A stretch of 63,658 nucleotides of DNA, the filler included, from Collodictyon triciliatum (taxonomy: Eukaryota): the NCBI GenBank assembly GCA_043381765.1. It is 11 parts of 11 records of this genome, joined end to end, with 100 filler letters (N's around TTAATTAATTAA, not from the genome) between each part and the next. Parts side by side here need not be neighbours in the genome. Positions count along the whole stretch, not along the records: positions 5,901 to 11,695 come from JBHJMP010004936.1; 10 more parts are not named here. The stretch is one strand, 5' to 3'. Both the position numbers and the translations under genes were made by a program. A model generated the notes under the pieces. That model was not told the origin of the DNA. It did no database searches and worked only from the letters and a program-made list of their open reading frames with translations. Positions 5,801-57,266 of the stretch are shown in pieces. Position 1 is the first letter of the stretch. Each line of letters begins with the position of its first letter.

Positions 5801-5900
5801 NNNNNNNNNNNNNNNNNNNNNNNNNNNNNNNNNNNNNNNNNNNNTTAATTAATTAANNNNNNNNNNNNNNNNNNNNNNNNNNNNNNNNNNNNNNNNNNNN
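5801..5900. other. Artificial contig linker N-TTAATTAATTAA-N (also at 11740, 17641, 23530, 29422, 35310, 44667, 50553, 56434, 62358)
   Basis: Identical 12-mer with stops in all six frames inside N runs. Genes are cut at these points and do not continue on the other side. Confidence 0.97.
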
Positions 5901-5979
<79 letters not shown>

Positions 5980-6880
5980 AAAAGGGAGTCGGGTTCAAGC
6001 CGTCAACCCACGGGTAGCAAGACAGGTATGAATTTAGTGTTCAGTATTAGTTGTACTGATTCGTTCATCCGTTTCTTTTTCTTTCCCTTTTCTTTTTCTT
6101 TTTCTTTTTCTTTTTCTTTTTCTTTTTCTTTTTCTCTTTCCATTCTCTTCGGTCTCATTCAGCCTGTAAATGAATAAACTTCATTACAAAGGTTGTGACG
6201 AACTTGGTTTTATCGCTTTCAAGTCACAACACTTTTTATACAACGAAAGTGTACCCATATATAATAATTTATTGCACAGACAACCATCGAATTAAATCTG
6301 GATTGATGAAAGCAGGAGCTTTGATGAATCCAACAAACTACCTGAATAATATAGCAGTACGATTAGTATATATATATATAATAAGGTCAAAATACTTTAT
6401 AATATCATTCTATTCTTGTAATCAATTTATGTTTTATTTTTTATTTATGTAATATAGTAAATCAAATTCAAAATTACAAACAAGCCCTTACCTTGGCTCA
6501 GACAGAACCCACCCTGTAAACCTGCCACCAAACATGCATTTCAAAAAAGCATACTATCCACACTTGCGGCGGCAATCATGTTGTTTGGGGCCGATATGTT
6601 GACTTTCAGTCGCAATGGTTATATGGCCGTCCTTTCGAACTCGCCGAATCGGCTCTCAGCGTTTTGTCCAAAAATCACTTGCAAAAAAAAAAAAACTTTG
6701 TGTGTTCCTTTGCCACAATGCGCACATTTTGAGAGTCTCGGTAGATGCTTAATTTTACATAAATTGATTATATGCAGTTTTTTCTTATCTATTCATTAAA
6801 TCGACTGATTGAATAAAGTTTTACTAAAATCGAAAACTCGGTAGTTTTCCAAAGGAAAAAATTAAAACAAAGACTTTCAG

Positions 6881-8828
6881 ATGAAGAAAAGAAAATGTCT
6901 TGAGTTTGACAATATAAAGTTTGTAAAACCACACTATCGAAATCTGAAAACATTTCTAAAGTCGATTGTAAAGAATGCGGATGACTATGACGAAATCAAC
7001 GATACGGTTCTATTGCGTCATAATTTGGTTACCGACACTTATCTGTTTGTAAGGTGTTACATATTGAAAGCACAACAGCTCACAACAATCGATGAAAAGT
7101 TTTTTTTTTTTTTTTTTACGCTTTAAAGGCAGTCATAATAGTTTCACAAGATAGAACCGCAATTAAAAAAAAAAACCAGATATGAGAGATGCCATGATGA
7201 CTTTTTATCTCTATGATTTTCGATTCCTTTTGTCCCAAGAAGAACGTTTTCCATTGGTTGGACTGTCTCATGTATTGCCGTACTTGGCGAAGCAAATGTT
7301 AACAGCCTATCATAATAACATTAAGGAGCATTTTGTAAAGAGGCTACTGCGCTTTATTAATCAAACAGTTCCTAAAGATGAGGATATGATGGAAGCTATT
7401 TAAAAGGCAGAGTTACGAAAGTTAAAAAAGAAGTCATCTTCAAGAATCTCGAAATACCGGAACAATATAAAGGATGGGCTAAAATGCATTTGCATGAAAT
7501 CATTCCCAAGGTTATTGTAAATGGTATCGAATGTGACGTCAAAGTCAATCCGAGTAAGTACATTCCATGTCTGATTTACGTGAATATCATTTTTGAGGAC
7601 ATCGGGACCCAAACTGTTTCGACCAATCCTCATAATGACTACCAATATACCATGCTATATTACTCTAGATACTGCATGTTTGATATATATTAGTATCAAC
7701 TGAAAAACATCATTACTGAAGAATATATCAAGACGCAAAGAGACCCTATGGATGAGTTCTTTGAAATGAAAAGGAGGGTCTTTAATCAAACAGACCACAA
7801 TTTTAAATACATAATACAAACAGACGGCTTGGCGGTGTCATTATTGTTTGAAAAGAATTGTTTTTCAAATTCAAAATCCAAATATAATTAAAAAAAAACC
7901 CAAGAATATGTTTATATAGGTGAACTTTCCGAAGAGCATTTATCTTTATTAGCGAAAAAAAATAAATAATTAGTTGGAGTGGACGCAAGCAAGTTTAATT
8001 TGGTTTACATGGCGGCTGAGACAGGTAAGAAATTACGTTACACGGCACACCAAACAAGACACGATGGCAAATCTCTTAAAAATCACAAAATACTCTTGCA
8101 CGAGAAAAGAAGAGTACAATGCTTCAGAGACATGCATGACAACAGGTTTATAAAGTGTTGTTTCTTTTGGTCACATGACTTTTGAAGAGAATCAGCGGTT
8201 TGAGACATCAAGAGCATCTTTAATCGATTTAGAGACAGAACTGAGTAATATAATTCGTGCACAGTCGATTATGAAAAAATTCAAAAACATGTATATATGA
8301 AATCAAGATACCAGACAGAATTTTCCAGATTTTATGAACACGTAACTTTTCGAAAGGTGATATGGAGACAGTATGTTAATACAAAAAGAAGTGAACCGTT
8401 GTTTATGGACCGATTCGAAAAAACATTTGGCAAGGATGTTGTACTGGCGTATGGAGACTGGAGCAGAAAATGTCCGATGAACCATTTTATGCCAACAATT
8501 GGAAGAGGATTACGAAAAATACTATCCAAACGTTTTGAACAAGTTTGTGTAGATAAATTAAAAACCTCCAAGATATGATGCAACTGCGAAAAAGAACTGG
8601 AATGCATGAAATTGAAAGGGAATTCGAAAAAAGGTGTATAGATGTCTCATATGTAAAGAATGCAATCACTCAGAAAGCATGCAAAGTGTATTCTTGACAA
8701 GGGACTTTAACAGCGCTAATAATATACTCAAGAAAGCTCTTTTAATCCTTCAAAATATGCATACACCTTTTTCTAAAAAACAGGCTGTTGGGTCTTTTTT
8801 GGCAGCCTACACTACACAATCTTTGTGA
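6881..8828 (+). pseudogene. Fanzor1 (TnpB-related RuvC RNA-guided endonuclease), frameshifted
   Basis: Joined frames give LKTFLKSIVKN..INDTV, YHNNIKEHFVKRLLRFIN, IQTDGLAVSLLF, RuvC-I VGVDASK (D codon 7982-7984), KTFGKDVVLAYGDWS, RuvC-II VDKLKTSK (consensus VDExxTS, E->K), Zn finger I*CNC..LICKEC and RuvC-III TRDFNSANNI. No introns evident; several stops and frameshifts. Confidence 0.88.
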
Positions 8829-8850
8829 AAAAAGTGGCGAGACCTCGGAT
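8775..8850 (+). ncRNA. Candidate Fanzor omegaRNA scaffold
   Basis: Stem AGGCTGTT(8782-8789)/GGCAGCCT(8801-8808). Second stem CACAA/TTGTG with outer CACT/AGTG (8810-8836). Loop GGTCT (8791-8795) is complementary to AGACC (8840-8844), a possible pseudoknot. Position at the ORF 3' end fits omegaRNA. Confidence 0.45.
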
Positions 8851-9388
8851 ACTAATGGACGAAGTTTACCTATCGAAAGATTGCTATGCTCCTTCCAGTA
8901 TACTATATTATAATATGATAATAAAAATTACTGAAAACTACTTTGTGTGCTGATATATTTGCAAGAAGGCTTACACGCTATCTGTAAGTGCAATTCGCAT
9001 AATGCCACTCTTTATTATCTTCATCATTGATGACATGTGAGGCTTATGTCCCTACACTAGTCATAGCTACCGAACAAAACGTATATTGAATTCTGACTAT
9101 AATAATATCAAACAATAAAAAAACACACAACGAAAACAGGAAACAGAAAAAAAGAAGAAAACAGAAAACAGAAAACAGAAAACAGAAAACAGAAAACAGA
9201 AAACAGAAAACAGAAAACAGAAAACAGAAAACAGAAAAAAGAAAACAGAAAAAAAGAAAACAGAAAAAACTCACTAAAAATACAAGATGATACTAATATA
9301 TGCTTAGTATTAAGCATATGTTAGTGTCATAAGACAAATAAACAAAGAAAAAGCAACACAAAACAAAACTTAAAATTGCACACAACTT

Positions 9389-9469
9389 CACCATCCTGCA
9401 CAAAATTGAAAGGAAGAATAAAAAAAAAAAAAAAAAAAGGAAAAAAAAAAAAAAAAAAAAAAAAAAAAA
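9389..9469 (+). mobile_element. Short poly(A)-tailed retroposon copy A (5'-truncated)
   Basis: CACCATCCTGCACAAAATTGAAAGGAAGAATA(n) shared with copies at 17514, 52802 and 53051. Confidence 0.7.
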
Positions 9470-9617
9470 CGACTGGGCGTAAATCATGATCGAAAATTCG
9501 TGCCCACTGAAACAACGCTCGGGCCGCAGACAGACTCACTTGATTCCCAACGATCGCGCACTTCACTAACTTCTTCCTAAACAACCAAACGAAGCTGTCT
9601 TCTGAAAGAGCGGCAAT

Positions 9618-11510
9618 ATGTCCTTCGTCAGGTCCACGCGCCTTGGCACCTTCCGACAGCAGGGAAAGGTACTTGCTCGAGAGCACTTTCGCTTATTTTG
9701 CTCATTTCTCTCTGTGCTCGGCCTTCGCTTCAGCTCTAAATACGGACTGGACATGAATATCTAGGTTCTCTGTGGTTACTTGATCAAGCAGACACCACTG
9801 TTGTCTAAAAGGCGTTGGTGTGTGTTAAAGGGAAAGGTTCTCTACATATTCAAGTCTCATCAGGTTTGCAGTCATATATGTTTCAAGAAATCATACATTA
9901 ACGTTCGATTCAGAATTATACAAGCTTGCTATCACCCTACACTTAATCTGTGATAAACATATCAATCGAAGTAAAATGCAAAACAAAGGAGAAGATTCCC
10001 ATGGAATCGATTGATGTATCATTGTCCTCTTATGAGTCCTTGGAACAGCAAACCGGCAAGTTTATATTTTCCCTCAAACTGCAGAGCGAGTCGTGGAAGC
10101 CCAACCTTTTCCAAGTACCTTGTTGACTAACTAACCATGTTTAAATATCTAATACGACTTAGACGAGCATAATCAATTGTTTTCTCCAACATTATTTACC
10201 TGATTCCTTGACTCACCATTTACTTGAGTTCCTTCCTTTTTTTTCTTTCTCTCCTTTTTTCTTTTTATGACAGATTGATTTTCAGGAGACCTTTCAGATG
10301 TGGACAGAGGCCCTAGGGCATCTTGCAAAACCAGCGCCGCCAAAAAAGTCGCTGTCAAGCGATGCTGGCTTCTGGGGATTTCGCTCATCCGCTCCAACAT
10401 TCACCTTTCTTACCCCAGATTCTGTGGATAATTATCAAGAAGAAAGATGGGATATATCATGCCTTATGGAAACATCAAGCAAACAAGGCGGGCTAATAGC
10501 AGCTGTAAGATACTTTGTGTGTTCACTTTTTACTTTATTTCATACCCTATCTTTCATATCTTTCACTCCTTTCACTATTTTTCTTTTGTATTACGCGCTG
10601 TGGATAGTCGATTTACATACACCTCCTTACTCGATGCACTTTTTTCGAAAAGGGGAACAGCATCGTCAAACACTGGAAGATGAGATGGATTACTGTAAAT
10701 GGTCTTTGGATTTTGCAGATGAAACACAAGAAAGTATTCAATTAATCAATTTTGAATATTTTTTTCACCACGGAATATAATAATGACCAAATGAGCTACA
10801 TGCCATATTTGAATATCTGGAATAGCCGTAACATTTTTCACTTTTTCTTTTAGAGCGACTTCATCTCAGTGGCAGTACCATTAGAACTTGCCAATAAGGA
10901 CGATATTGAAATACTTAGTGATATCGATGCTTCTGCATTGCAGCTTCCTCTTTCTTTGCCCCAAGGAGCAGGAGAGAGTTCCACCTCGACTGTTATTCTA
11001 AGATCCATCAAATTGTTCTGGTTCTCGGTCAAGTCGATTATTATAGGGCGCAGCTTCTTCTTCGGGGCGCTTTCTGCTACAGACCGCAGTGATTGGACGT
11101 CTTTCTTGAAGGATTTGGTCAGTCAGAGTCCGATGGAACTCGCTGGAGACTTTGAGATTCAAAGTATGCAAACGGTTGAATGCAAACCAGACTTACACGA
11201 TGAGACTCTTCCAGAAAACATCAGCCCCGAGTCAAAAGCAAGAATGGGTCCTGGCACTGCCCGTGAATCTCGGAAATGTTCAAAGACAGGGAGAATTAAA
11301 ATCAAACCTCTCTACAGATATTCGACAATGTCATCTGCAAGTTCGTACGATAGCTACGCCGATGAGAACGTAGCATCACCTCCTGCCATGGTCAGCTTTG
11401 ATTCGCTTGAAACGATTGAAGAGTCCCAGGATACCTCAGATCAGAATCGGCAGTCACAAAGATTTTCATTTGGACACAACATATCGGTATGCTTTTTGAA
11501 TCCAATAATG

Positions 11511-11541
<31 letters not shown>

Positions 11542-11659
11542 CGTACCGTGCTTCCTATTAGCTAAGTGACATAGATATTCATGAAAAAATTGGTCGAGGT
11601 GCTTCTGGGAAGGTTTATTCTGGAAACTACAAAGGCCAAACTGTCGCAGTCAAGAAATT
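9618..11659 (+). CDS. PH-domain tyrosine-kinase-like protein kinase, 5' part (cut by contig end)
   Basis: Exons VLCGYLIKQTPLLSKRRWCVLKGKVLYIFK..WTEAL (PH), a second PH-like end FFFGALSATDRSDWTSFL, then kinase subdomains I-II IHEKIGRGASGKVYSGNYKGQTVAVKKL. Confidence 0.85.
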
Positions 11660-11795
11660 GTAAAACCTGATAATTTTTCAGCTCTATCTCACTGTNNNNN
11701 NNNNNNNNNNNNNNNNNNNNNNNNNNNNNNNNNNNNNNNTTAATTAATTAANNNNNNNNNNNNNNNNNNNNNNNNNNNNNNNNNNNNNNNNNNNN

Positions 11796-17585: not shown

Positions 17586-17901
17586 GAGAACTTTCANNNN
17601 NNNNNNNNNNNNNNNNNNNNNNNNNNNNNNNNNNNNNNNNTTAATTAATTAANNNNNNNNNNNNNNNNNNNNNNNNNNNNNNNNNNNNNNNNNNNNAAAA
17701 AAAACATAACAAAAAAAAAAAACAAAAAAAACATAACAAAAAAACATAACAAAAAAAACATAACAAAAAAAACATAACAAGAAAACATAACCAAAAAAAC
17801 ATAACCAAAAAAACATAACCAAAAAAACATAACCAAAAAAACATAACCAAAAAAACATAACCAAAAAAACATAACCAAAAACAAAAACAAAAAGCAAAAT
17901 A

Positions 17902-23357: not shown

Positions 23358-24518
23358 GCTGTATCCTTATGCAGGACCGTGGGGCGCTTTGAGTATCTTT
23401 CGGAGGACAAAGACAAAGACAAAGACAAAGACAAAGACAAAGACAAAGACAAAGACAAAGACAAAGACAAAGACAAAGACAAAAANNNNNNNNNNNNNNN
23501 NNNNNNNNNNNNNNNNNNNNNNNNNNNNNTTAATTAATTAANNNNNNNNNNNNNNNNNNNNNNNNNNNNNNNNNNNNNNNNNNNNTTTTATGTGTTTTAT
23601 GTTTTTTATGGTTTTTATGGTTTTTATGGTTTTTATGGTTTTTATGGTTTTTATGGTTTTTATGGTTTTTATGGTTTTATGGTTTTATGGTTTTATGGTT
23701 TTATGGTTTTATGGTTTTATGGTTTTATGGTTTTTTGTTTTGGTTTTGGTTTTGGTTTTGGTTTTGGTTTTGGTTTTGGTTTTGGTTTTGGTTTTGGTTT
23801 TGGTTTTTTCTTTATGGTTTTTTAAGAGTATCCGGCCAACCTGCATCGCTGGGTGTAGATGTTTTGAAGAAAGCCCAGAAATCAACCCAGACGAAAACCA
23901 AACGAAGGGAGCAGGAGCCACAGCATTTCAAAATATTGTGCGCTCAAAGCCACCCATTTACATGCTCAGGAGTACGTTTCCATAAATCACGCCGGGTGTA
24001 AGGGCCACACAACTCTTAGACCATCAACCAACACATTCGTGTACACCCCAATCAAAGAGAACTAGTTTGGGTGTATATTTGTTCATCCAATACAAAGATA
24101 AACAAAATCGAAATTGTAAAGCTTGATGTCGGGCCATATAATTTTAATTTCTAGTATAAAACTTGTTATAATTTCTGCACTGACAATTGTACACCGCATA
24201 TGCTGATTTAGAACAGAAATATATTATCCAGTTTTGTATTGTCGACATTCTCCACATCAAGCCGCCTGCTCGGTGGCATTTGCTGCGGTTGAATTTGATG
24301 AAGGCTGATTCTCTCGCTTGAGAACCATAAGACCCTTACGCTCCCTCCTGACCGCTCGACGGTATCGACACCACTGACATCCACGCAGAAAACTCTGTAT
24401 CTCCACACGGTAAGAGCGCGAATCCTTCCACAACCTTCACAGAATCTCTCCCGCCTTGCCACACGCGAGTGGCTTCGCAATCGAAACCAAATCCAACATC
24501 ACATTCACTGATCCAGAC

Positions 24519-25603
24519 ATGGCTCGCCAACTCGAATACCGCGGAACCCTCAAAGCCCACTCCGGATGGGTCACCTCGCTCGCCACCAGCGCCGAAGCCC
24601 CCAACCTCCTCCTCTCCGGCTCCCGCGGTTTGCACCCCACCCTTCGACACGCACAGACAGACAAAGAAAGAAATTAGTGGCCACTTGCCTTCCTGCAAAT
24701 CTCAACGCAGCACCTCCTCTCTGCCTCTCTACCTCTCTACCAAACACAGACAAGACCCTCATCGTCTGGGAACTGACCAACTCGCGCACGGAGGAGAGCT
24801 TCGGCTTCCCCAAGCGCTCGCTGCGCGGCCACAGCCACTTTGTGCAGGACGTCGTGATCTCGTCGGACGGACAGTTCGGCCTCTCCGGCTCGTGGGACGG
24901 CACGCTGCGCCTGTGGGACCTGCAGACGGGCAAGACCGTGCGCCAGTTCATAGAGCACTCCAAGGACGTGCTCTCTGTGGCGTTCTCTGCGGACAATCGC
25001 CAGATCGTCTCGGCCTCGCGCGACCGCACGGTGAAGCTGTGGAACACGCTGGGCGAGTGCAAGTACACCATCACCGACAAGGGCCACACCGACTGGGTCT
25101 CGTGCGTCCGCTTCTCGCCGGCCGTGGCCAACCCGTTCATCGTCTCGGCCGGGTGGGACAAGTCCGTCAAGGTCTGGAACCTCGCCGACTGCAAGCTGCG
25201 CAACGAGCTCGTCGGCCACACCGGCTACGTCAACACCGTCACCGTCTCGCCCGACGGCTCGCTCTGCGCGTCCGGCGGCAAAGAAGGCACCATCATGCTG
25301 TGGGACCTCAACGAGGGCAAGCACCTCTACTCCCTCGAGGCCAGCGACATCATCCACTCCCTCGCCTTCAGCCCCTCCCGCTACTGGCTCTGCGCCGCCA
25401 CCCAGGCCAACGTCCGCATCTGGGACCTCGAGGCCAAGGAGGTTGTTGAAATCCTCGACATCGAGTTCAACACCGTCAGCGACCGCTCAGCCAAGCGCGC
25501 CCAGAAGCCCTACCCCGTCTCCATCGCCTGGAGCCACGACGGAAACACCCTCTTTGTCGGATACACCGATGGCAACATCCGCGTCTGGTCCGTCAGCAAT
25601 TAA
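24519..25603 (+). CDS. RACK1: RACK1 / guanine nucleotide-binding protein beta-like (WD40 x7); intron 24628-24749
   Basis: [99 protein letters not shown] intron restores the frame. Strong GC3 bias. Confidence 0.98.
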
Positions 25604-29477: not shown

Positions 29478-29508
29478 AAAAAACCATTAATACATCCCCA
29501 CTTTTTTG

Positions 29509-29541
<33 letters not shown>

Positions 29542-30563
29542 TCTTGCGGGTCTATCTTGTGAAACTATTCCGACTGTCTTTAAAGCGTACAAAAAATATA
29601 TATTTTTTTTCTTCATCGATTGTTGATAGTTGTGATTTCAATATGTAACATCTTGCAAACAGACAAGTGTCGGTAACCTAATTGTGACACAATAAAACCG
29701 TATCGTTGATTTTGTCATAGTCATCCGGATTCTTTACAGTCGACTCTAGAGATGTTCTCATTTCGATGGTCTGGTTTTACAGACTTTAGATTCTCAAACT
29801 CAAGACGTTTTCTATTCTTCATCTGAAAGCCTTTGTTTTACTTTTTCCTTTAGAAAGCCACCGATTTTTCAATTTTATTAAAACTTTAGTCAATCAGTCA
29901 ATCAATTAATAAAAACAACTGCATAAAATCAATTCAGCTATAATTAAGCATCTACCGAGACTCAAAATGTGCACATTGTGGCAAACAGACACACAAAGTT
30001 TTTTTATAACTGATTTGAGACAAAACGCTGGAGCCGATTCGGCGAGTTTGAAAGGACGGCCGTATATCAATTGCGACTGAAAGTCAACATATCGGCCCCA
30101 AACAAAATGGTCACCGCCGCAAGCGTGGATAGTATGCTTTTTTGAAATGCGTGTTTGGTGGCAGGTTTATAGGCTGGGTTCTGTGTGAGCCCAAGGAGCG
30201 GCTTGTTTGTAATTTTTGAATTTCAATGATAATATTGTATAATGGATAATAAAATATGAATTTATAATAGGAATAGAATGATATTATAAAGTATTTTCAA
30301 CCTTATTCTATACTAATTATACTATTACATTTTTCAGGTTCTTTCTTGGATTCATCAAAGCTCCTGCTTATGCCAACTCGGGTTTTTTTCCCTTTATTTT
30401 GTCAATCCAGATTTAATTCGATGGTTTGTCTGTGCACTAAATTGCTATATATGGGTACACTTTCGTTGTATAAAAAGTGTTGTGCCTTGACAGGGATTAA
30501 AGCGAGTTCGTCACAAACTTTGTAATGTAGTTTATCCGTTTACAGGCCGGATGAGACCGAAGA
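29478..30563 (-). mobile_element. Fanzor1 element copy 2 (left arm plus ORF 5' end; truncated at contig start)
   Basis: Reverse complement aligns with 6146-~7200. ATG at 29822 gives MKNRKRLEFENLKSVKPDHR..LRTSLESTVKNPDDYDKINDTV, with its own 2-nt deletion and a TAG stop. Confidence 0.88.
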
Positions 30564-30952
30564 AAGGAAAGAAAAATGAAAAAAAAAGAAGGAAAGATGA
30601 ACAAACGAAACGAAAAGAAAGGAAAGAAAAATGAAAAGAAAAAACAAACCTTTAGTTTTATAATTCCCCCGGTTTGGGGCGTCACAAAATTGGTTTGAAA
30701 GCAAGCAACTTCAATTGGCTTTGGGGGTAGCAAGCAGAGTCCGTGCTGGGCACACACAGTTAGAAACATGCATGACGAAAAGGGTGTTTAAGCATAGAAT
30801 ATATGCTTCAAAACGTGTCTTGTGATCGTGAGCAAAGGTTGTGCTCTGGTGCTCTGGTGCTTTTTTCTTCATTTATTTGTACCTACTTTTCTCTTTCTCG
30901 TTTCCCTCGAGTCCATTGTCTGTCACATTGATGGAATGATCCATTTTAAAGA

Positions 30953-50608: not shown

Positions 50609-53600
50609 TTTTTTTTTTTTCTTTTTCTTTTTCCGACGGAAAAGGGACTAATATGGTCGAGTATGTTTCCCTCTCGATGAAGGTTCTCTTTGTCTCCCGC
50701 ATTGGCCTGAGTGAAGGTGACTTGGACAAGTACATAAAAGATGCGATTGGGACAGGATTCGAGCTTGCTGAATGGTTTGCTTTCTCTTTAATTTTAATGG
50801 AATAAATAGGTTTAGCCTTTTCTTTTCTTATTCTTATTCTTTAATTTATCTTTTATCCGTTCAAATAGGAAATCCTTTTTCTTTACCCTTATCGAGTCAC
50901 TTTTAGTCCGTAATGGAAGGTTGGTTTTATTTTTTTCCTTTATTCGATTCAAAGTGTATGGTTGGTTTTATTTTTAAATTATTTGGTTCTTTAATCGGTG
51001 CACTTTCGGTATAATTTTATTTTGGATTTAAAGCTAATTATTGCTTATCATAGATACATGTACTTCCACCAGCTGCTGTTGTTGACCACCGAAAAGTTCT
51101 ATTTCTCTGAAGTGAAAGAGATGGAAAAAACCCACGAAAAATACGGAAAATGGTTGTTTGGTCAGTATTCTGAGGCTGCTGACGTGGATGAGGAGCTTGC
51201 TGCTGAGATATGCTACCAGCTTCTGCAGGGCAGTTCGTTTGACTTGCTTGTGGAATACATGAAGCAAAAACATGTAGTTTTTTATTTTTATTTTAAATTT
51301 TATTCGATTATTCTATACATAATGAAACGATTTTCACTTATTATTTTGAATATTTCATAGGTTATCAGCATCATGCTCGGTGGTCGTTATCGCTACGAGT
51401 TCTTTACGTGCTGGAGAGCAATCAACGCAAGTGGAGCGGCGAACTACAAAGATGCTTATGGAAGCTTGGCTAAGGTATTTTATTATTTAGTTTTATTTTT
51501 TTGAAGGTTACTACTCACAAAATGTAATTTTCAATCACCATTTAATTTTTAATTTAATTATTTTTCAGTCTTTGGATAATGTGGGAGACCTGCTTGTCGA
51601 TTTTTTCGTGGAGTCTTTTGAGAACTCGTTTTTGTTGTCTGTTCTGAATGTGCGTCTTGGAAAGCATCAGACAGAAGGTATGCAATTTATTATCTCTTTT
51701 GAATGATTTATCTCATTAAGACAAGTTTATATGTAGATATGTTGAATAATCTATTAATTTATAGGTTCGAAGGCTGCTGATTACCTGAATCTTGGTCGTG
51801 TCTACAAGAACCTCCAAAAGTATAAAAAATATATATAAAAAACATTAATGATTGTAATTAAGACATGACATGATGTTTATAATGCAAACTTTTCTAAAAT
51901 AAAATTAAACAGCTGGGCTGAGTCCATGGTCTACTACAAGAAATGTCTCAATTCAGTCGAAATTAATGAAGATGATTCCTTGCGTATTGCCACCATTCAT
52001 GAAGAGATGGGAATCATCTACCAGCAACAGGATAAGTAAGGCTCGTCAGCTATTTCAATTTTAGAATGAATTATGAATAATGTTTAAAAAAATAGTGTTT
52101 TGATTTGTTTATAAAATAGAATTGATCAGGCTCTCGATGAATACAAGAAATCCCTGGAATTGAGAGTCAAACAACTAGGCGAGAACGATTTGCAAGTGGC
52201 CCAATCACATGACCGCTTCGGAGACATATATGTGAAGCAGTCAAAGTAATATTTAATCATATGTTTTCGTTAACATTCCGCTTATATTTCTGTAAATATA
52301 AGTTTGTTGATCAATATTTATGATAGGAATGAGGAAGCTCTGGCTGAATACACAAAGGCCATGGAAATTCGCCGAAAAAAAGTAGGAAACGAGCATCCTC
52401 TTGTCGCAACATCGTACCAGAACTATGGCCATGTCTCTCTGGCTGGGAAAAAGTAGCATAGTCATTCGATTTAAGCTGATTTTAAATATGGTTATAATTT
52501 TTGAGAAATATTAATATGATTGAATCATCAAGATATGAAGAATCTGTTGAAAACTACGAAAAAGCGAAATCTACCCTTGAAAAATTGCTGGGGGCTAAGC
52601 ATGCGTCTGTTGCCTCGACAATCCAGTTTATTGCGAGTGTTCATCTTGCCAGTGGAAAGTTTGGATTTCTATATTACAGATATTTTCATACAATAATTTT
52701 GTGTTTCTTTCAATTTTTTCAAGATGAATGTGGCTTCATATCTTTCATTTGCATCCTATTTAGGGTTAATTTTTTACATAATGTAATTTTAACTAATTTT
52801 TTATGGCTAGCGAACCTAAGCCAACATCTCCACCATCCTGCACAAAATTGAAAGAAGAATAAAAAAAATTAAACTAATTAGATAAATATCAAATAACCAT
52901 CGTCTTATATAGGAAAACTGAGGCCGTGTCCTCATTAAAACAATCGCTGGATATTTTCATGTCTGCCCTGGGTGAAAATCATCCGAATGTTGTGGCCTGC
53001 TTTGAGATGATTGGAGACATCAGCCATGATTTGAAGGAGTATCTCTTTTTTTTTCTTTTTTTTTTTATTCTTCCTTTCAACTTTTGTGCAGGACCGAGGG
53101 AAGGAGTATCTCTTTTTATAAATTATTTTTGTATTTTTTAATTGAAAAGAATAATTTACTTAATCATATTATCTTAGCTTTAAGGGTGCTCTGGACGCCT
53201 ATACGAAGACGCTGGATATTCGCATGAGAACACTGGGCGAAAATCATGCTGATTATGCGACTTCCCTTGAGAATGTTGGCAGAACAAACTGTGAGCTTAA
53301 AAGGCAAATTGCTCTATTATATTAAAAATCGAATATTTTGATTAACACTTGTAAAAAAAAAACAATAAATATTGAATAATCAATAATGTGCATGCATTTA
53401 GATTGGACCAAGTAGTTGAATACTTCCAAAAGGCAGCTGCTATCAGAAAGGAAACAAATACCACCATATCACTGAAAGACGGTTCACAATGTACAAGAAT
53501 TGCGCAAATTATGGGAGACAAGGAAGAGCATGAAGCCGTCATCCAGCTTTACAAAAAAGCTGCTGTCAGACATGCTGAAAAGTCCTCCTTTGAAAACTGG

Positions 53601-56065
53601 GACTGCTGGGTGGCTTGTGAGACTGCACACCAATACTGCAAGGACAATAAGCTGCATGAAAGTGGCGTGGCGTTCTGGGCTGAGATGAGAGACCGATTCG
53701 CTGATAAACTCGGATGGATTCACGAGAGGACAAGGCTGGCAAATGTTTTCCTGTTGGATTCCAGCAAACATGTCGAGGATTTCAACATCAATATGAAGGG
53801 CTTTAGCTTTTCGGATATTGATAATGCGGATGCCCTGGAGAATGTTGGCCGAACAAACTTTGAGCTTAAAAGGTAATTTCTCTATTTGTTAAAAATTTTA
53901 ATATTTGGTTAAGTTTTTGCAAAAGTACTCAAATATTAACTAATATACATGTATTTAGATTGGACCAAGTCGATGAATACTTCCAGAAGACAGCTGCAAT
54001 CAGAAAGGAGACAAATACAATCATGTCACTGAAAGATACTCATCAAATTGACAACATTATCCGCTTCATGAAAGACAAGAAGGAGCATGAAATTATCATT
54101 CAGGTTTACAAAACGCTGATTCATTTATTCAGCAAGCTTTACTCCATGGATTATCTTGGAATATGGAACAGCTGTGAGGAAATCGACAAGATTTACAAGG
54201 AAATGATGCAGCATAATGAAGCAGTGGTATTCTGGGCTGAGATGAGAGACAGATTCGCTGATAAACTGGGATGGATTCACCCCAGAACGTTAAACTCGTG
54301 CGAATACTTGTCCGTCCATTCAAAGGAAATTGGAATCAACAAAGAGCCTGTCGAGTTTACAAGAGTCAATAGATTCATCTGTGAAACTCTTGATGATGCA
54401 AAACTAGATGAAGAATGGAATCGTGAGCAAATCATTGCGTCATTATTCAGAATTGTCTACATGTCAACGACTGATGAGAGCAAATCAAAGGCTGCATCTG
54501 ATGCAATCACACTTTTGAATTTCATGAATTTTTCGTTTGGTGGAATGGATTTATCAAAAATCAAAATTCCACATGCAAATCTCAGTAACTCAATCCTTGA
54601 TGGTACAAACTTCACTGGTGCCAACTTGGATGGTGTTGATTTCACAAATTCGATGCTTGGTGACTGTGTTTTTGATAATGCGAATATGAGTAATGAGAAA
54701 TTTGGAATTCTGAATGATAAACTAGAAGGCCATACAAGAGCTGTCTATAGTGTTAACATTATTCAAGGACCGAATGGTGAAAAGTGGTTGGCTTCTGGAA
54801 GTTGGGATAAAACAGTACGTATTTGGGATGTAGCCACAGGAAACCAAATCAAAACATTAAGAGGTCATACAGATGGTGTCAACAGCGTTTGCAGTATTCA
54901 AGGACCAAATGGTGAAAATTGGTTGGCTTCTGGAAGCGATGATAAAACAATACGTATTTGGGATATAGCCACAGGAAACCAAATCAAAACATTAGAAGGT
55001 CATATAAATTGGGTCATGAGTGTTTGCAGTCTTCAAGGGCCGAATGGTGAAAGTTGGTTGGCTTCCGGAAGTCGGGATAATACAATACGTATTTGGAATA
55101 TAGCCACAGGAAACGAAATCAAAATATTGGAAGGCCATACAAGCGAAGTCAAAAGTGTCTGCAGTATTCAAGGGATGAATGATGAAAATTGGTTGGCTTC
55201 TGGAAGCTATGATAATAGAATACTTATTTGGGATATAGCCACAGGAAACAAAATCAAAAGACTGGAAGGCCATACAAGCGAAGTCAAGAGTGTCTGCAGT
55301 ATTCAAGGGCTGAATGGTGAAAAGTGGCTGGCTTCTGGAAGTTTTGACAAAACAATACGTATTTGGGATATAGCCACAGGAAACCAAATCAAAATATTAG
55401 AAGGTCATACAAATCAGGTCAAGAGTGTTTGCAATATTCAAGGGCCGAATGGTGAAAACTGGCTGGCTTCTGGAAGTGAAGATGAGACAATAGGTATTTG
55501 GGATGTAGCCACAGGAAACCAAATCAAAACATTAGAAGGTCATACAAATCATATCAACAGTGTTTGCAATATTCAAGGGCCGAATGGTGAAAAATGGTTG
55601 GCTTCTGGAAGTCGTGATAATACAATACGTATTTGGGATGTAGCGATAGGAAACCAAATACACAGTCTGCAAAACTCAGAAGTGACCTTCACCCAAGGAA
55701 AATACTTCGTCAAGAAAGAAAAGCCAGACGAAAATATTGCAGTATTCAATAGAACAAGTGACGCGATGAACACGATTGATACCAACAGAATCCAAGATGC
55801 AAAGACAGTCCAGATTATCGGCCCAAGAAAGCTGCAAGGTGGAAACATCCAAATCAGAAATGTAACAGGATTGAGTCAATTTAACAAATCTCTTCTACTT
55901 TCTATCGGTGCTGCTTCCTTTGATGCGAACTTTGTTGCCTATTGTGAGCAGTATAAATTCACCAACTTCCAGGCTCAAATCGTGGCTGAGTGCTATGAGA
56001 ATGGATGGGGTGTTGATAAAGACCCTGGAAAAGGAGTAGAGTGGAGACAGAAAGCCACAGATTAA
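50609..56065 (+). CDS. NLR/STAND-like protein, 3' part: post-NTPase helical region, TPRs, pentapeptide repeats, 7 WD40, Sel1-like repeat
   Basis: SRIGLSEGDL..YFHQLL..EICYQL (NPHP3/TEP1-like region), kinesin-light-chain-type TPRs (LGENHPNVVACF), AASDAITLLN..IPHANLS..FTGANL, seven 45-aa GH..WD repeats and CYENGWGVDKD. The NTPase domain itself is not in the window. Confidence 0.85.
52802..52868 (+). mobile_element. Short poly(A)-tailed retroposon copy C (intronic)
   Basis: ATGGCTAGCGAACCTAAGCCAACATCTCCACCATCCTGCACAAAATTGAAAGAAGAATA(n); AACTAATT at 52791 and 52872 may be a TSD. Confidence 0.75.
53051..53099 (-). mobile_element. Short poly(A)-tailed retroposon copy D with ~18-bp TSD
   Basis: Reverse complement CCTGCACAAAAGTTGAAAGGAAGAATA(n), flanked by GAAGGAGTATCTCTTTTT at 53033-53050 and 53100-53117. 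Confidence 0.85.
54722..55666 (+). repeat. Seven highly similar 135-nt WD40-coding tandem repeats
   Basis: GGYCATA motif recurs every 135 nt (54728, 54863, ...), with high nucleotide similarity between units. Confidence 0.95.
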
Positions 56066-56685
56066 CAAGGTAAGTAGTGTTATACATTCATATTAATATA
56101 TGTTCGTTAACTATTCATTTTAGATTGAGAGATTCTCTGGGTTTTTCTTCAAGCTGGCTCCGCTTTTTTCCCGGATGCTCCATGAAAATAGAATAAAACC
56201 TTAAAAATGAGAGCAAAGCTGGTCGATGTTTGTTGCAAAACCTTTTTCTTTCTTTCTTTCTTTTTTTCTTTTTTCTTTTTTCTTTTTTCTTTCTTTCTTT
56301 TTTTCTTTTTTTCTTTTTTTCTTTTTTTCTTTTTTTCTTTTTTTCTTTTTTTCTTTTTTTCTTTTTTTCTTTTTTTCTTTTTTTCTTTTNNNNNNNNNNN
56401 NNNNNNNNNNNNNNNNNNNNNNNNNNNNNNNNNTTAATTAATTAANNNNNNNNNNNNNNNNNNNNNNNNNNNNNNNNNNNNNNNNNNNNTTGTTTTTGTT
56501 TTTGTTTTTGTTTTTGTTTTTGTTTTTGTTTTTGTTTTTGTTTTTTGTTTTTGTTTTTGTTTTTGTTTTTGTTTTTGTTTTTGTTTTTGTTTTTGTGGCC
56601 AGATGAAACAAACAATATACACAGAAAACCACAAATTGCAGTTACTATGTTTCTTAATTCTCATAATTCACACCGTGATGGAAAT

Positions 56686-56758
56686 GCCTTCTTAGCACAG
56701 TTGGTAGTGCGTCAGTCTTGTAAACTGAAGGTCCGTGGTTCGATTCCGCGAGGAGGCA
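56686..56758 (+). tRNA. tRNA-Thr (anticodon UGU)
   Basis: Cloverleaf: acceptor GCCTTCT/AGGAGGC, D arm TAGCACAGTTGGTAGTGC, anticodon arm TCAGT-CTTGTAA-ACTGA, T loop GGTTCGATTCC; T7 Pol III terminator at 56763-56769. Confidence 0.97.
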
Positions 56759-57266
56759 TCACTTTTTTTGCCTTAGGTGCTTTGCGATGCACTCACTTTT
56801 TCGCTTCTTTCGCAGACCGGATGCACGGAGTTAGTTTTCGCAGGCACAGATGTTTTGCTTGGGACTTGGACAGGGCTGCGTCGGGATGCTTGGCCGCACA
56901 GTGTTTGGGCTGCGACGGGTACGTGGCTGATTCCGCACGGCTCCGCCTTTTTGATTGACTTCTTTTGTCTGAATGACGTGTTTGGCTCTGTCGCTTTTCT
57001 CTGGGCGCTTTGAAGTGACACTCACACTTTGCAGTCTCTTTGTACACGCAGGAGTTTGGGTTCTGAAGGTTTGAGCTATTCCCCTTGGATATTGTTTCAT
57101 TTTATTATTGATAATGTAATTGCGTGTTGTTATAATCCATTACCCTTTGTACATAGTTCTTGTTCTTGTTTTTGTTTTTGTTTTTTTGTTTATTTTTTTT
57201 TTTCTCATCTTCGCCATCCTGTATGACTTTTGTCGGTGTGACGTTTAAAAAAAAAAAAACTGCCAG

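Follow-up and report, generated by a model that had tools for sequence, protein, structure and literature searches.

Fanzor1, the eukaryotic counterpart of TnpB and Cas12, has been described since 2013 and is in development as a compact genome editor. Thousands of Fanzors are by now on record, including non-autonomous and decayed families (PMC10530073, PMC3627910), and a catalogue of 2023 lists 3655 of them in five clades (PMC10530073). In this work we analysed a 63.7-kb window (that is, the whole stretch of 63,658 nucleotides, made up of joined scaffolds) of the eukaryote Collodictyon triciliatum, assembly GCA_043381765.1. Its subject is a broken Fanzor1 gene, together with the repeated mobile element that carries this gene.

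Several described systems can be set beside the locus. SPu-1 of Spizellomyces punctatus, the element encoding SpuFz1 (PDB 8GKH, 9CEU-9CEZ), is reported as ~2.1 kb long, with inverted repeats of 30-33 bp, a TA duplication and an omegaRNA composed of a 75-nucleotide (nt) scaffold after the stop codon and a 14-15-nt guide, while the omegaRNA of GtFz1 from Guillardia theta (PDB 9CER-9CET) overlaps the 17 C-terminal codons (PMC10432273). CRe-1/2/3 of Chlamydomonas, which are borne by Helitron2, and CMe-1A of Cyanidioschyzon, a family of old age, were presented by Bao and Jurka in 2013 as non-autonomous families with Fanzor1 as their only gene (PMC3627910). Elements without a transposase are familiar among carriers of Fanzor1, with SPu-1, the SfAV element and CMe-1A as described examples (PMC10432273, PMC3627910, PMC10711439).

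With SPu-1, as portrayed in PMC10432273, the window element has in common a single intronless open reading frame (ORF) of ~630-650 amino acids (aa), the presence of multiple copies, the lack of a transposase of its own and an omegaRNA expected at the 3′ end. It differs in its length of at least 2.8 kb, in an upstream region of ~800 nt or more, and in showing no convincing inverted repeats. The likeness to CRe-1/2/3 and CMe-1A, drawn from descriptions rather than sequences, lies in 5′ ends that are often truncated or variable, in deletions within the element and in hairpins at its termini; copies of CMe-1A are ~80% identical to their consensus, which points to an age similar to that of the two copies in the window, with 81-85% identity between them (PMC3627910).

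The region is very probably what decay has left of a non-autonomous DNA transposon with a single gene, which encoded an RNA-guided endonuclease of the Fanzor1 type. The evidence consists of homology, the fold class of an intact relative, the lesions in the reading frame, the repeat status of the element, and the lack of any transposase among the ORFs scanned on the scaffold. Guidance by RNA, the place of the omegaRNA in the element and a role in transposition are ascribed to it by analogy with the Fanzor1 literature.

Identity and decay of the Fanzor1 gene

The pieces of the reading frame were joined, with stops entered as X, into a read-through translation. Among the solved structures this sequence significantly matched PpFz1 of Parasitella parasitica (9cf0, from the set PDB 9CF0-9CF3; 1.9e-7), the best match of the broken gene itself, and SpuFz1 (8gkh; 5.5e-7), and no other; both are Fanzor1s, and the aligned stretches lie around RuvC-I and from YGDWS to the zinc finger. 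On a match of this kind, to the RuvC region of TnpB or Fanzor, a preliminary description of this DNA had made its Fanzor1 proposal depend. In a search of 5.8 billion proteins 18 were matched, the top one being an intact public protein of 648 aa (here P0002; E = 2e-100). Among representatives at 50% identity, 1361 matched at E <= 1e-3, 548 at E <= 1e-10 and 30 at E <= 1e-30.

A profile of 60 mostly full-length homologues (alignment A1) matched PpFz1 at 8e-101, SpuFz1 at 7e-100 and GtFz1 at 1e-73, and its match to SpuFz1 was a full-length one, covering profile positions 6-603 of 615. The next match after the Fanzor1s was LaTranC (5e-4), and no solved TnpB or Fanzor2 chain was found with this profile at E <= 0.01. 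As a single sequence, P0002 had GtFz1 as its best match (2e-28).

The fold was tested on P0002, an intact relative 56% identical to the window copy. Its AlphaFold2 model (predicted local distance difference test, pLDDT, 87.2; predicted template modelling score, pTM, 0.85) was compared with known structures in Foldseek, giving template modelling (TM) scores of 0.72/0.77 for SpuFz1 and 0.66-0.70 for PpFz1 and GtFz1, against 0.22/0.28 for the Fanzor2 ApmFz2 (9b0l) and 0.20/0.33 for ISDra2 TnpB (8h1j). Variants of Cas12 were far below Fanzor1 as well, with about 0.2-0.3 for Cas12f. Because of the profile matches to solved Fanzor1s and the fold match of P0002, the window gene is supported as a Fanzor1 by descent, now a pseudogene. 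Both lines of evidence, the matches to PpFz1, SpuFz1 and GtFz1 and the structural comparison that the preliminary description had suggested, thus favour the identity given there.

The distance from the solved proteins is considerable. In the Foldseek alignments the nearest solved Fanzor1s were 18-20% identical to the P0002 model, with only about 20% for SpuFz1, and the copy in the window, unlike SpuFz1, is dead; PpFz1 is in addition larger (about 720 modelled residues). The idea that this might be an uncharacterised family therefore stands in so far as the solved or assayed Fanzor1s are only ~18-20% identical, but not in the sense of a family unseen before, since 1361 representatives match and intact relatives such as P0002 are public.

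An identity as TnpB was considered and rejected, the TNB domain of Pfam giving no match in the window pieces and staying below its cut-off in the relatives, and no TnpA being present in the scanned flank ORFs. TnpB (IS200/IS605, IS607) and Fanzor2 do resemble the window family in the order RuvC-I, zinc finger, RuvC-III, and an alternative RuvC-II Glu is also described for Fanzor2 and for a subset of TnpBs (PMC10530073, PMC10711439). Unlike them (TM 0.20-0.33), the window family has a protein of ~650 aa with Fanzor1-type additions in REC and WED and with the TDG motif.

The window DNA from 6881 to 8843 was aligned to P0002 by frameshift-aware dynamic programming. End to end, 642 codons were aligned, 362 of which are identical (56.4%), with 6 residues lacking a codon and 8 extra codons. 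Since so few positions are unpaired and none of the gaps is of intron size, the pseudogene has no intron, and the ORF fragments at 6881-8828 do form one intronless protein, as had been proposed. The joined reading is interrupted by eight frameshifts (near 7098, 7166, 7402, 7601, 7753, 8114, 8251 and 8627) and five internal stops (TGA 7701, TAA 7889, TAA 7967, TAA 8151 and TGA 8576), so that this copy is unable to make a nuclease and is a dead relic. An altered genetic code was ruled out as the source of the stops: they align to Cys, Glu or gap columns of P0002, the eight frameshifts would persist under any code, and a host ORF of 731 aa with WD40 repeats, described below, is open in the standard code.

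The conserved positions were taken from the A1 alignment and are given in P0002 numbering. D364, E555 and D604 are invariant in 60/60 homologues, and so are T312, P365, G521, S559, N606 and N610; represented among these positions are RuvC-I (DPG), the alternative RuvC-II Glu that precedes T-S-K, RuvC-III (RDxN), YGDWS (by its G) and TDG, a motif described as characteristic of the Fanzor1 WED domain (PMC10711439). At the three catalytic positions, where all 60 homologues have D, E and D, the window copy has D, K and D. Furthermore, the Pro-Gly following the RuvC-I Asp has become Ala-Ser, although P365 is invariant in 60/60. The canonical RuvC-II position, at YGDWS, is reported to be without Glu in all Fanzors treated in PMC10530073.

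In the zinc finger the first Cys is replaced by TGA (8576-8578) and the other three are present, with the frameshift near 8627 falling between the two knuckles. Two features of an active nuclease, the alternative RuvC-II Glu and an intact C4 zinc finger, are therefore missing, and because of the Lys at the invariant E555 position the copy was classed among the dead relics, not among functional Fanzor1s. The five motifs named in the preliminary description (RuvC-I, YGDWS, VDKLKTS, the CxxC..CxxC finger and RuvC-III) were all found at their places (Table 1), the finger with the reservation just made, and its judgement that the copy had died through stops, frameshifts and a Glu to Lys exchange at RuvC-II agrees with the lesions counted in the alignment.

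Table 1. Positions of the features discussed, counted along the window
Feature	Position	Strand	Remarks
Spacers between scaffolds	5801-5900, 11696-11795, 17597-17696 and eight further sites		spacing ~5.9 kb
Motif CAAGCC...CACGGGTAGCAAGA	5996-6025	+	in other copies directly before 6280
5′ non-coding part of the repeat	6060-6880	+	common to the second copy, 81% over 6146-6880; starts in a T/C-rich microsatellite
Fanzor1 pseudogene	6881-8828	+	ATG at 6881; natural stop TGA 8826-8828; basic N-terminus MKKRK
TDG motif (QTDGLAVSLLF)	7820-7828	+	kept; T312 invariant in the 60 homologues, D313 and G314 shared by 90% of them or more
RuvC-I (LVGVDASK)	7970-7993	+	catalytic Asp GAC 7982-7984 kept
YGDWS	8450-8464	+	canonical RuvC-II position; kept, without Glu
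VDKLKTSK	8549-8572	+	Lys AAA 8555-8557 where homologues have the alternative RuvC-II Glu (E555)
C4 zinc finger	8576-8663	+	knuckle 1 8576-8587; knuckle 2, C-K-E-C, 8652-8663
RuvC-III (RDFNSANNI)	8700-8726	+	catalytic Asp 8703-8705 kept; D604, N606 and N610 invariant
Candidate omegaRNA scaffold	8782-8853	+	predicted stem-loops 8782-8808, 8815-8827 and 8833-8853; extend over the final 15 codons with the stop
Second copy, partial and decayed	29479-30648	-	on another scaffold, cut by the scaffold end; 5′ region and first ~108 codons

Repeat status and weighing of the evidence

The Fanzor1 gene is carried by a repeated eukaryotic mobile element, of which the window holds a second copy. Compared with 6072-7162, this copy is 81.5% identical over 1131 nt, and its first ~108 codons are spread over three frames with one in-frame stop. 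The identity between the two copies is 81.0% in the non-coding part (767 columns) and 84.9% in the coding part (284 columns), similar values that fit neutral decay.

Further copies are present in public data. In four public runs (word shares 0.05-0.09), two of which are freshwater or lake-water metagenomes, contigs at least 80% alike were placed on 6146-9090, with 164, 500, 24 and 487 contigs per run. These contigs are short and spread over all identity classes; those of run X2, for example, comprise 53 at 99% identity or above, 111 at 95-99%, 177 at 90-95% and 159 below 90%. Together they span the element from 6146, the first base compared, to about 8881, and although contig depth gives no copy number, the element does exist in many diverged versions.

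Some of the contigs have letters that are missing from the window copy at three of its frameshift sites, namely 7749 (+G), 8104 (+AA) and 8249 (+C), and contigs with three-base omissions lack the stretches in which two of its in-frame TAA codons lie. Because there are contigs without those breaks, several of the lesions are private to the window copy or to its sub-lineage, and less damaged relatives exist. A metagenome scan with a 109-aa piece gave one locus, where 21 residues matched at the edge of a contig, and was uninformative on the ends of the element.

Transposases were looked for on the scaffold of the pseudogene. No transposase family was present in the four ORFs of at least 110 aa, nor, with the threshold lowered to 45 aa, in the 38 ORFs of the intervals 5976-6880 and 8850-11695. 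That no transposase is visible, as stated beforehand, therefore holds for the scanned ORFs of this 5.8-kb scaffold.

Several results weigh against reading the region as a decayed Fanzor1 transposon. Pfam gave no match in seven ORF pieces or in the read-through translation, in a library searched without PF26935, a silence put down to the shortness or the divergence of the pieces, and the family Cas12f1-like_TNB (PF07282) reached only 21-24 bits in the relatives, below its cut-off of 26.3. Two of the frameshifts, near 7098 (T18) and 7166 (A11), sit in long homopolymers and are possibly assembly or length errors, the remaining six of the eight being outside such tracts. The best end-to-end inverted match (5976-6300 against 8790-8960) is 24 nt long, pairs 6230-6253 with 8813-8836, has its left arm away from the left limit of the repeat, and has a score that was reached by 4/200 shuffles. 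At the 3′ end, the 83-nt segment 8776-8858, which folds into three predicted stems, is no better than shuffles (z = -0.93, 35/200), and Rfam gave no match for 5976-9130 at permissive thresholds.

As a separate observation, the relatives carry the precomputed Pfam family PF26935.1, which may be a newer, Fanzor-specific model and would offer the fastest way to annotate such genes.

For an intact member of the family, a mechanism can be proposed along the lines of the described Fanzor1s. Its protein of ~650 aa would associate with an omegaRNA, the transcript of the element's 3′ end, and this RNA would overlap the end of the ORF and run a few bases into the flank. A guide derived from the flank, with a short adjacent motif (target-adjacent motif, TAM), would then direct DNA cutting by a RuvC site made up of the RuvC-I Asp, the alternative Glu that immediately precedes the zinc finger, and the RuvC-III Asp. 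The cutting would presumably help the element to persist, home or copy itself, whereas its movement would depend on a transposase supplied in trans. The window copy itself has no protein function and is decaying neutrally.

Limits, carrier and 3′ end of the element

The left limit of 6146 given in the preliminary description has to be moved outwards, as the homology between the two window copies starts about 6060-6072, inside a T/C-rich tract. Some contigs lose their likeness before 6191/6192, where their flanks are unrelated, and in five others (four in run X2, one in X6) a conserved sequence like that at 5996-6025 stands directly before 6280. From this arrangement it seems that the element may reach further left, with about 6026-6279 as an insertion or a variable segment. 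On the right side one contig covers up to 8881 and one turns unlike after 8854, and the earlier limit of about 8850 is compatible with this cover; the contig depth drops in 8819-8917 and there is no cover after 8918, which is not evidence for a right end. Internal deletions occur in the 5′ region among the public contigs, and this part of the element also contains hairpins, one at 6189-6235 and another at 6229-6253 (for 6188-6258, z = -2.16).

Two candidates in the 5′ region were discarded. The GC-richer block 6465-6665 does not behave as a structured RNA (z = +0.47), and the 112-aa ORF at 6461-6799 has neither a Pfam match nor a counterpart of 110 aa or more in the corresponding part of the second copy.

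The element is also bracketed by two simple repeats, (TTTTC)n at 6079-6140 and (GAAAACA)n at 9130-9270, which are roughly complementary (73% over 55 nt). The left tract is common to the second copy, and the right one lies ~250 nt past the last base covered by contigs (8881). In a genome as rich in microsatellites as this one the symmetry is probably coincidental.

As to the class of the carrier, an element of the SPu-1 type (Tc1/mariner-like) would be recognised by terminal inverted repeats (TIRs) of ~30 bp and a TA duplication, and a Helitron2-type element by a 5′ hairpin with an asymmetric terminal inverted repeat and, on the 3′ side, a repeat with a hairpin after it, 20-30 bp away from the terminus. 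It is possible, if on balance rather unlikely, that the carrier is a rolling-circle element of the Helitron2 type, like CRe-1/2/3, and not a TIR element like SPu-1. Variable 5′ ends, internal deletions, terminal hairpins and a T-rich left flank are all described for CRe-1/2/3 and Helitron2 (PMC3627910), and each has a parallel here: left limits that vary, with loose ends before 6191/6192 and 6280, internal deletions in the 5′ region, hairpins near the left part (6189-6235, z = -2.16) and the right end (8782-8808), and a T-rich left flank in both window copies. That a comparison of the end regions gave no convincing TIR can be added on the same side. On the other hand, the one inverted 8-mer that inspection revealed between the two ends is no more than chance would give, a RepHel gene did not show up in the 64 kb analysed, and microsatellites are so common at scaffold ends of this assembly that the T/C tract may have nothing to do with the element.

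At the 3′ end, the position of an omegaRNA is proposed by analogy with the described Fanzor1s. The repeat apparently stops no more than some tens of bases from the stop codon, which leaves no room for a scaffold outside the ORF; the overlap proposed here, of 15 codons, is close to the 17 codons reported for GtFz1 (PMC10432273), with the difference that the omegaRNA in the window is only a candidate. Of the three predicted stems only that at 8782-8808 stands out from shuffles. On the + strand it beats 200/200 of them (z = -2.97), and on the - strand it is weaker (z = -1.23) because five of its pairs are G-U. All these fold statistics refer to a single 3′ end.

It could be asked whether the dead gene is nevertheless a working guide locus, a "ghost" whose 3′ end is transcribed to an omegaRNA programming intact Fanzor1 paralogues elsewhere. 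Such loci, with active omegaRNAs, have been described for SpuFz1 (PMC10432273), and the strength of stem 8782-8808 on the + strand would suit the idea, as would the succession of three predicted stems, which resembles the three-stem shape given for Fanzor1 reRNAs by Yoon et al. (PMC10711439). In addition, the C-terminal peptide KKQAVG, encoded by the 5′ arm of this stem, is kept between the window copy and P0002, in which it is modelled at low confidence. A functional ghost locus is nonetheless quite improbable, considering that neither the 83-nt segment nor a longer one of 241 nt (z = -1.61) folds better than shuffles as a whole, that Rfam recognises nothing, and that the rest of the copy is in neutral decay.

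A wider proposal joins these points: the dead gene would mark a very abundant and partly still intact Fanzor1 family of a freshwater eukaryote, with a Helitron2-like, hairpin-ended carrier, an omegaRNA scaffold placed almost wholly in the last 15 codons, and decayed copies acting in trans as ghost guide loci. Taken in its entirety, it has little chance of being correct.

Genomic setting and meaning for the family

The window is a chain of scaffolds of ~5.8 kb each (one of 9.3 kb), joined by spacers of the form N44-TTAATTAATTAA-N44, and since it is composed of separate scaffolds, adjacent pieces need not be neighbours in the genome. The true context of the Fanzor1 relic is thus limited to the 5.8 kb of its own scaffold (5901-11695). 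In the right flank, 8850-11695, short split ORFs were found, one of which has a PH-domain match (E = 1.8e-4), the sole notable match of the flank scan; this flank is probably an intron-containing host gene adjoining the insertion. The host DNA is AT-rich, with a G+C content of 33-38% in most scaffolds. Microsatellites are found at the start or end of most scaffolds in the window, as expected of a short-read assembly breaking at simple repeats.

In this respect the origin of the scaffold has to be considered. Fanzors occur in large DNA viruses (PMC3627910, PMC10530073), and several relatives of the gene are on long metagenome contigs of unknown origin, so that giant-virus or contaminant DNA might be suspected in place of host nuclear DNA. 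This is very unlikely, given the split ORFs of the right flank with their PH-domain exon, a base composition and microsatellite ends that are the same as in the other scaffolds, and the second copy of the element on another such scaffold; a scan of IMG/VR with P0002, which detects close relatives only, gave no relative either.

That the gene is intact in the organism, and its breaks merely errors of sequencing or assembly, is hardly credible: the draft is very fragmented (~5.8-kb scaffolds breaking at microsatellites), two frameshifts are in long homopolymers and some related contigs have the missing letters at three frameshift sites, but the five internal stops, the Glu to Lys and the Cys to stop are substitutions and not length errors, 6/8 frameshifts lie outside long homopolymers, the independent second copy is broken as well, and the copies differ by 15-19% in coding and non-coding sequence alike, as old dead repeats do.

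Elsewhere in the window three host features were identified. An intronless ORF of 363 aa at 24512-25603 (+) consists of WD40 repeats (WD40 E = 3e-53) and is presumably RACK1-like; it lies in a locally G+C-rich stretch, on a scaffold whose GC content is 45%, compared with 33-38% in most of the rest, but whose T-rich microsatellite ends are the same. The 731-aa ORF mentioned above, at 53870-56065 (+), contains seven or more WD40 repeats. Just upstream of it, an ORF of 166 aa (53376-53876, +) resembles its N-terminus, and this likeness suggests a tandem duplication or a paralogue fragment. A tRNA-Thr gene (anticodon TGT) at 56685-56760 (+) was found both by ARAGORN and with Rfam (68.9 bits), as the sole match in the window at the Rfam gathering score.

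As a decayed copy of a Fanzor1 transposon, the locus is a sound annotation and no surprise, a real but ordinary addition to a well-catalogued family. It gains interest from its relatives, since each new Fanzor1 subfamily adds possible TAMs and omegaRNA designs, and the inert copy in the window points to a subfamily ~20% identical to the solved Fanzor1s, with intact public relatives (P0002 and the members of A1) and many freshwater copies. It also touches the question of how Fanzor1 elements without a transposase move and what the nuclease does for them, a question on which a family whose 3′ end is sharp, whose 5′ ends vary and whose termini carry hairpins would be informative.

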